Below, in pieces: positions 20,356 to 21,470 of a DNA stretch of 64,000 bases. The notes beneath the pieces are model-generated. The model worked only from the letters and a program-made list of their open reading frames with translations, ran no database searches and was not told where the DNA came from. Position 1 is the stretch's first letter. Every line of letters starts with the position of its first letter. The stretch is from the NCBI RefSeq assembly GCF_041886205.1, contig NZ_CP169029.1. The stretch is one strand, 5' to 3'. This DNA is from Escherichia coli (GTDB lineage: Bacteria > Pseudomonadota > Gammaproteobacteria > Enterobacterales > Enterobacteriaceae). The translations under genes and the position numbers were made by a program.

Positions 20356-21470
20356 TTAAACGCCCGGCTCCTTATGCAGTCGACGACATGCAGTGCCATC
20401 CTCACGGAACAGATGGCAACGCTCTGGCGGCAGGCCGATAGCGAAAGTGGCACCTTCTTCTACCAACACCACGTCGTTCTGGCGGTACACCAGGTTTTGA
20501 CGAATGGAAGGGATCTGGATATGGATTTGGGTTTCGTTGCCGAGTTGCTCGACGACCTGAACTTCACCCTCAAGGATGACGTCAGCGATATCACTCGGCA
20601 GTAGATGTTCCGGGCGAATACCCAGCGACATATTGGCTCCAACCTGGACATCACGGCTTTCAACTGGCAGCCAGACTTGCTGACGATTTGGCATCGGCAG
20701 CTCCACCTGCACTTGATCGATTGCGGTGGCGGTCACTTTTACCGGCAGGAAGTTCATCTTTGGCGAACCGATAAATCCGGCGACAAAACGGTCTGCCGGG
20801 TAGTGGTACAGCTCCAGCGGTTTCCCAACCTGCGCCACGCGACCGGCGTCCAGCACCACGATTTTGTCGGCCAGCGTCATCGCTTCGACCTGATCGTGGG
20901 TGACGTAAATCATTGTGCGGCCCAGCCGTTTATGCAGACGGGAGATTTCGATACGCATTTGCACACGCAGTGCAGCATCGAGGTTGGAGAGCGGTTCATC
21001 GAGCAAAAATACGCTTGGCTCGGCTACCAGCGTACGGCCAATCGCCACACGCTGACGCTGACCACCGGAGAGCGCTTTCGGTTTGCGATCCAGCAAATGC
21101 GCCAGTTGCAGCACTTCCGCCACCTGGTTAACCCGTTGGTTAATCACCTCTTTTTTGCACCTGCCAGTTTCAGGCCAAATGACATATTTTCTGCTACTGA
21201 CAGGTGGGGATAGAGCGCGTAAGACTGAAACACCATACCAACGCCGCGTTCTGCTGGCGGAGTGTCATTCATCCGTTTCTCACCGATGAACAGGTCGCCG
21301 CTGGTGATCGTCTCAAGCCCGGCAATCATGCGCAGTAAAGTCGATTTACCGCAGCCAGACGGTCCGACAAACACCACGAATTCACCTTCATGGATATCGA
21401 GATTGATATCTTTCGATACCACGACCTCGCCCCAGGCTTTCGTTACATTTTGCAGCTGTACGCTCGCCAT
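20356..21470 (-). pseudogene. malK: malK maltose/maltodextrin transporter ATPase, interrupted by a -1 frameshift in a poly-A run (as sequenced)
   Basis: MalK N-terminus ([20 protein letters not shown]... to ...LKLAGAKK) ends in a stop at 21144; the remainder ([11 protein letters not shown]... to the C-terminus) continues in another frame from 21147; T6 at 21151-21156 where an intact frame needs seven. Confidence 0.8.

Follow-up and report, generated by a model that had tools for sequence, protein, structure and literature searches.

In the window, a 64,000-nt stretch of Escherichia coli DNA, malK is split in two by a frameshift. Read against its relatives, this is definitely the loss of one base from a coding-strand A7 run rather than an ORF pattern due to chance, because the nearest complete genomes have seven T at this position and an intact MalK, and because the window's 101-base malK context on this background has no ungapped match among complete E. 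coli genomes. The single most likely origin of the A6 form, at about even chances, is that the consensus of a long-read-based assembly miscalled the homopolymer; the strain's malK-lamB-malM operon would then be intact and ordinary. The finding is itself an ordinary one and leaves knowledge of the maltose system unchanged. Sequence alone cannot tell whether the deletion is in the cell. Unless the reads are consulted, a frameshifted malK in an assembly gives no ground for calling a strain Mal-negative or LamB-constitutive, a caution that is called for because public long-read data repeatedly miscall the malK A7 run as one base shorter. Should the deletion be real, it would be a small textbook-style frameshift carrying its own partial suppressor, a slippery heptamer, and operon polarity could reverse the naive regulatory prediction.

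The malK lesion and its surroundings

malK lies on the minus strand, with its ATG at 21470. The plus strand reads ...ttaatcacctcTTTTTTgcacc..., with exactly six T at 21151–21156, and the coding strand at the lesion is GCA AAA AAG AGG TGA. An earlier note on this DNA had proposed that malK is split by a -1 frameshift in a homopolymer, which is borne out by the ORFs on the minus strand and by the seven T of the relatives. The first ORF encodes 108 residues ending ...LKLAGAKKR, with its TGA at 21146–21144; the note had correctly placed the stop at 21144 (the last base of the codon), while leaving out the terminal R. The remaining MalK sequence (263 codons, VINQRVNQ...HKEPGV) can be read in the -1 frame from a GTG at 21147–21145 to a stop at 20358–20356, in agreement with the note's description of it as continuing in another frame. 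The indel relative to intact orthologs falls within the mononucleotide run, at malK codons 107–109. Joined, the two frames give the 371-aa MalK exactly, and the halves are collinear and identical with the intact protein. Pfam searches on fragments identical to the window's found PF00005 in the first and PF00005, PF17912, and PF08402 in the second; the features identifying MalK (ABC_tran and MalK OB/TOBE regulatory domains, and a malK-lamB-malM context opposite malEFG) are all present. The parts of the lesion are as follows:

21144–21470, minus strand: malK 5' part, 108 codons plus stop, encoding MalK residues 1–107 followed by R and covering the N-terminal part of the ABC ATPase domain (translation; PF00005 on identical product)
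21151–21156, minus strand: A6 run on the coding strand (T6 on plus), contracted from the relatives' A7; the lesion (sequence and alignment to relatives)
21150–21156, minus strand: A_AAA_AAG heptamer in the zero frame, made by the deletion; candidate -1 ribosomal slip site (sequence; register and product checked)
21144–21149, minus strand: AGG, a rare Arg codon, then the premature TGA stop (sequence, translation)
21145–21147, minus strand: GTG overlapping the premature stop (GTGA); possible termination-reinitiation codon (sequence)
20356–21147, minus strand: malK 3' part in the -1 frame, GTG first, encoding MalK residues 110–371, with the remaining ABC domain, OB_MalK, and the TOBE_2 regulatory domain (translation; Pfam families)

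Just past the run, at 21143–21150 on the minus strand, the malK coding sequence reads GAGGUGAU, an 8-nt match to the Shine-Dalgarno (SD) consensus (the complement of the 16S rRNA 3' end). It is too near the GUG to act as a normal ribosome binding site, and might cause ribosome pausing.

The locus as a whole is E. coli malB, where the minus strand carries malK-lamB-malM and the plus strand malE-malF-malG. Its other features, identified from ORFs and alignment (the control region from alignment), are:

17872–18792, minus strand: malM, intact; last gene of the operon
18944–20284, minus strand: lamB, intact and identical to that of strain wlxctx60; 3' of malK in one operon with it, hence subject to polarity
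21471–21834: divergent malK/malE control region, the same as in relatives
21835–23025, plus strand: malE, intact
23179–24723, plus strand: malF, intact
24738–25628, plus strand: malG, intact

Comparisons were made with 5,426 complete RefSeq E. coli genomes, the window itself lying outside this set. Four members of the set (wlxctx60, 6EVA, LHM10-1, and CP52E) are nearly identical to the window, each with seven T and an intact 371-aa MalK (WP_000179165.1). When the window was aligned base by base to wlxctx60 and 6EVA, with the rRNA operon set aside and ~51 kb left, the strain-unique differences came to seven SNPs, none at Dam or Dcm motifs, and a single indel, that in the malK run. The other homopolymer runs agree with the relatives (18 of at least 7 nt, five 8-mers included; 43 of 6 nt; 162 of 5 nt), as do 123 of 123 CCWGG sites. 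Since lamB, malM, malE, malF, malG, and the control region are all identical to those of wlxctx60, the malK event is either very recent or not real; with A7 in all four near-identical genomes as well, the locus has undergone no secondary decay. The window's MalM protein allele is very common (29,249 blocks in the protein collection described below). Between malG and xylE, upstream of xylE, a run at 25792–25799 is T8 here and T7 in wlxctx60; because 6EVA also has T8, this is a length polymorphism among near-identical strains.

The same deletion in other genomes and in a protein collection

The window's exact malK allele was found in none of the 5,426 complete genomes. The A7-to-A6 deletion does occur on the commoner GGC/CGC synonymous background, in nine of the 5,426, annotated as frameshifted in every case and representing about six or more lineages. 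Two carriers, the EC21Z pair, are identical over 18 kb, and C51, EC101, and APEC20/16 are ≤10 SNPs apart over the same length; EC43, FDAARGOS_1285, CRE287, and CUVET16-321 are each >100 SNPs apart over 18 kb. Six of the nine are pairs from three submitters, with two of the pairs crossing lineages, and in APEC20/16 the essential plsB is annotated as frameshifted too. C51 and EC101, with one SNP in 18 kb, were considered as a single clone sequenced by two laboratories. This idea was dropped: the 10-kb haplotype is common to dozens of unrelated genomes, so near-identity of this type is no proof of clonality.

Run-length queries were confined to 6-run alleles, the only ones able to seed, or to 30-nt flanks, as the low-complexity filter presumably masks T7. 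An A8 malK allele was found in 0 of 1747 matched complete genomes. One-base-short alleles are likewise absent from complete genomes at the runs in the essential genes plsB and dnaB (9 in malK vs. 0, p=0.004). At non-coding runs they number 8 in the ubiC-ubiA spacer, ~8 in the malG terminator, and ~4–9 downstream of malM, and there are many in sopA, which is often decayed. The pattern in complete genomes is as expected for real variants passing a selection filter, unless errors are strongly context-dependent, the essential controls being two only.

A second comparison used a collection of 15 billion proteins, in which the contigs with an exact truncated product were counted. As controls, the products of equal slips in the A7 runs of essential plsB and dnaB were counted as well, such frameshifts being taken as necessarily errors. 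The exact 108-aa malK product is found on 620 contigs, corresponding to 747 index blocks, and the GTG-started 263-aa product on 885 contigs. Contig counts for each kind of slip were:

malK: 620 for -1, 63 for +1 (A8), 58 for -2 (A5)
plsB (essential): 127 for -1, 92 for +1, 13 for -2
dnaB (essential): 99 for -1, 102 for +1, 3 for -2

With lethal -1 products of plsB and dnaB on 127 and 99 contigs, the error baseline is ~100 contigs per A7 run, and the malK -1 count is five to six times this. The malK -2:-1 ratio (58:620) equals the pure-error ratio of plsB (13:127; p=0.74), and the +1 product has no excess over the controls (63 contigs vs. 92 for plsB and 102 for dnaB). Among contigs of 20–200 kb, the size of short-read drafts, there are 15 malK A6 blocks vs. 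6 and 19 for the lethal controls, and among those >1 Mb 43 vs. 16 and 6, with the remaining excess in short fragments; overall, the malK A6 call is ~15-fold enriched in the long-read, hybrid, or finished assembly class over draft-sized contigs. Ten long-contig carriers of the exact truncated product were inspected, and in eight of them other homopolymer runs within 6 kb had also lost one base, which split malE, malF, lamB, or malM. A W13R version of the truncated product turned out to come from a CCTGG Dcm motif garbled in three different ways; the assemblies and read-run contigs concerned have many split genes. Together, the control counts, the contig-size classes, the extra deletions in carriers, and the Dcm garbling indicate that most public A6 calls at the malK run are technical.

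The W13R form had been entertained as a lineage marker of an inherited real allele, and was rejected as nanopore garbling. The CCTGG in question is at malK codons 12–13 (codon 13 is 21432–21434 in the window) and is miscalled GCACGG, GCCCGG, or GCTCGG in public nanopore-type data (L042–L051); the spurious "variant" MalK protein that results is found on 10 contigs.

The same miscall is recurrent in error-prone data. A complete rRNA operon lies within the window, and because short reads alone cannot bridge such an operon, the window presumably comes from a long-read, hybrid, or finished assembly, and a miscall would have arisen in this assembly. That malK A6 recurs in error-ridden long-read assemblies, beside nanopore garbling of Dcm motifs and clustered by submitter, argues for this origin. 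Homopolymer miscalls in long-read, 454, or Ion Torrent data are also alike in form, as one-base run contractions splitting an otherwise perfect gene, and assemblies that share the identical malK call also contain numerous further deletions of this sort, together with nanopore errors at Dcm motifs. The window differs from these in having no other such error in 51 kb. It is locally very clean, with malK as the sole unique indel in ~51 kb and 0 errors at Dcm sites, and given its seven unique SNPs one genuine indel would not be unexpected. Also pointing away from an artefact are the complete genomes, with nine short alleles in malK and none in plsB or dnaB; the carriers that are themselves locally clean (the EC21Z pair, CRE287, L013, and L014); and the 509 malK A6 blocks on contigs of 2–5 kb, which could be clean short-read data. 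The latter may come from short-read assemblies, for example of resequenced laboratory lines, whose contigs end at the REP elements on either side of the locus. The choice put forward in the earlier note, between a sequencing error and a malK mutant, is therefore the right framing, and the evidence leaves both at broadly similar weights.

A possible genuine deletion and its expected consequences

Replication slippage in the A7 run, as a genuine and recent mutation giving a leaky allele, is a serious possibility at somewhat under even chances. It would fit a window that is clean apart from the malK run, and the occurrence of the same deletion in nine complete genomes of about six or more lineages vs. 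0 in essential-gene runs, but not so readily the grouping of the complete-genome carriers by submitter, nor the protein collection, where lethal frameshifts are just as common as the malK allele among draft-sized contigs, the -2:-1 ratio resembles that of errors, and +1 shows no excess. malK is also a recurrent target under selection for LamB up-regulation (PMC12366229), and the properties of the mutated site itself favor a leaky allele.

With one A gone, A_AAA_AAG stands in the zero frame at 21156–21150, and a -1 slip after AAG continues as GAG GTG ATT... By conceptual translation, the protein from such a slip is exactly wild-type MalK. Few heptamers in E. coli are as prone to slipping as this one (PMC4066793, PMC5009743, PMC10861913), a property ascribed to the single tRNA-Lys, which pairs poorly with AAG (PMC5009743). 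Without stimulators, A_AA.A_AA.G slips at >0.1% in E. coli, and slip-prone heptamers reach 2- to 10-fold over a background of 0.055% (PMC4066793); a value of >1% for A_AAA_AAG in natural coding contexts is cited in PMC10861913. In an overexpression vector, C-AAA-AAA rescued one-base deletions at 25–60% (PMC1851650). No stimulatory structure was found 3' of the malK heptamer (the 71-nt fold is -20.1 kcal/mol, with z=-0.31 vs. shuffles), nor any SD-like stimulator at about 10–14 nt upstream, the only SD-like sequence being an AGGTG 2 nt from the heptamer. Since the downstream fold is no better than shuffles, the slip rate would probably be only 0.1% to a few percent, which tells against a genuine allele with much leak. 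A rare codon in the A site can promote slipping (hungry-codon frameshifting), and the rare AGG in the A site after the heptamer may favor the slip here.

Most ribosomes would then stop at the UGA, leaving a 108-residue N-terminal fragment, and a few would slip -1 on A_AAA_AAG, their product being exactly wild-type MalK. With little MalK present, MalT would be released and the mal promoters transcribed more, and with more malK mRNA following the release of MalT the slip product could itself be amplified. If real, the A6 allele would be leaky rather than a clean null, and the expected phenotype would be slow, leaky Mal+ with a partly constitutive regulon. The earlier note had loss of MalK abolishing maltose transport, which is not assured, because a slip on the heptamer yields wild-type MalK. 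Its further prediction of constitutive mal expression is plausible for malEFG, malPQ, and malS, and uncertain for lamB because of operon polarity.

Blocking malK expression by CRISPRi also blocks lamB (PMC6242692), and the LamB-raising malK alleles that arose in glucose-limited evolution cluster in the C-terminal regulatory domain, at residues 225–352, and are not early truncations (PMC12366229). The review PMC6906923 has nothing on malK polarity. Because lamB and malM are downstream in the malK operon and the LamB-raising alleles are not early truncations, an early malK stop may lower LamB through polarity despite the de-repression of MalT. Output of LamB and MalM would be set by the balance between de-repression and early-stop polarity: without reinitiation, polarity would reduce lamB and malM, while the GUG that overlaps the stop (GUGA) could permit reinitiation, giving a 263-aa C-terminal fragment and less Rho-dependent polarity. 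The likeness to classical malK mutants is that MalK loss removes both transport and the brake on MalT, with malK preceding lamB and malM in their shared operon (PMC12366229, PMC6242692); in contrast to the LamB-raising alleles at residues 225–352, the window's allele is an early stop at codon 108, with possible polarity and a built-in leak.

If the malK deletion is real, its closest functional analogy would be the compensated type of indel reviewed in PMC5009743. In the G-run of herpes simplex thymidine kinase (a "savior" or compensated indel), an indel is partly undone by low-level ribosomal frameshifting (PMC5009743), and with pDEST17 the attB1 C-AAA-AAA rescues one-base deletions, ribosomal frameshifting again offsetting a homopolymer indel (PMC1851650). 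Those two cases have protein-level proof, whereas rescue at malK is a prediction from sequence and the indel itself is perhaps absent in the cell.

The -1 site of dnaX is also similar, with the same heptamer and register, a nearby UGA, and a defined slip product; 11 nt of malK, GCAAAAAAGAG, are presumably identical to the dnaX frameshift site. The dnaX site has an SD-like element ~10 nt upstream, is followed by a strong hairpin, and is conserved in arrangement. malK differs in that its downstream fold is no better than shuffles and its split form is a rare derived allele, and while the dnaX slip truncates the protein, the malK slip would restore full length. Compared with programmed -1 frameshift sites in general, the malK run has a slippery X_XXY_YYZ in the zero frame (codons AAA AAG), no stimulator, and no conservation, as relatives have the uninterrupted A7 ORF. 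Contingency loci usually have tracts of 8–9 units or more and variable run lengths; here the ancestral run is 7 nt, A8 is found in 0 of 1747 genomes and on 63 contigs, at or below the essential baseline, and A6 has no excess in contigs of 20–200 kb. By these measures the malK site looks like an ordinary homopolymer frameshift, neither a programmed site nor a contingency locus.

It is unlikely that the culture was mixed, the original isolate being A7 and an A6 subpopulation, arisen during growth for DNA preparation, having entered the consensus. A7 runs are mutational hot spots, and a mixture would suit the over-representation of the allele in long-contig assemblies, which need separate large DNA preparations, as well as its presence in locally clean ones; it would however need a subpopulation of >~50% to set the consensus, implying a selective advantage of malK mutants in culture that is hypothetical. 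Similarly doubtful is the proposal that A6 is both real and recurrent because it is self-correcting, the trickle of MalK from slipping being amplified through MalK-MalT feedback into a viable low-MalK state with altered mal regulon and LamB output. If true, a +1 allele would be unable to reach the low-MalK state, which would explain the ~10:1 predominance of -1 over +1. That the run is a functional switch, whether a programmed frameshift that is conserved or a phase-variable locus controlling the mal regulon and LamB as phage receptor, is very improbable, for although the deletion recurs across many lineages, the operon encodes a phage receptor, and GCAAAAAAGAG has its presumed 11-nt identity with the dnaX site, the split form is not conserved (A6 in 9 of 5426 genomes on the common background, A7 in 4 of 4 close relatives), the run is just 7 nt, +1 is not enriched, and there is neither a stimulatory RNA structure nor an excess in draft-size contigs.

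Other features of the window

Positions 1–6571 hold a prophage-like insert abutting the 5' end of dusA, and the 6EVA alignment stops inside dusA. Its ORFs match DUF2303, a YfbR-like 5'-deoxynucleotidase, DUF551, and an Rv2179c-like 3'-5' exonuclease, and the insert is partly similar (90–95%) to the dusA-adjacent element of strain EC43. A SocA/Panacea-domain antitoxin gene (5849–6430, minus strand) beside an unassigned 156-aa ORF (5382–5852, minus strand) could form a toxin-antitoxin pair.

Short runs also vary outside malB. In the 12-nt ubiC-ubiA spacer, the T7 run at 15331–15337 is one base short in eight diverse complete genomes, so a one-base change in the distance from the ubiC stop to the ubiA start seems to be tolerated. 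A SopA-family gene (16062–17643) is frameshifted in relatives, and the window is the same as wlxctx60 across it. Two A7/T7 runs in this gene (16485–16491 and 17381–17387) lack one base in dozens of complete genomes, the strain 12009 reference record (NC_013353.1) among them, and a third (17486–17492) is A6 in 6EVA.

According to the relatives' annotation, accessory genes are interspersed with core genes at two places: the region between lysC and yjbD (36479–39365) carries a zeta-toxin family gene, a nucleotidyltransferase gene, and a slipin-family gene, and that between aceK and iclR (48906–51092) the type III effector gene espL4. The rRNA genes are located as follows:

57828–57943: 5S rRNA
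58039–60942: 23S rRNA
61297–62838: 16S rRNA

In the rRNA operon (57800–62200), SNPs and paired indels that set it apart from those of relatives are grouped in tight patches, as would be expected from variation or gene conversion between operon copies. The 6EVA 16S rRNA is annotated as 1537 nt rather than 1542, with bases missing in G5 and C6 runs, and for this reason the 6EVA reference probably contains errors.
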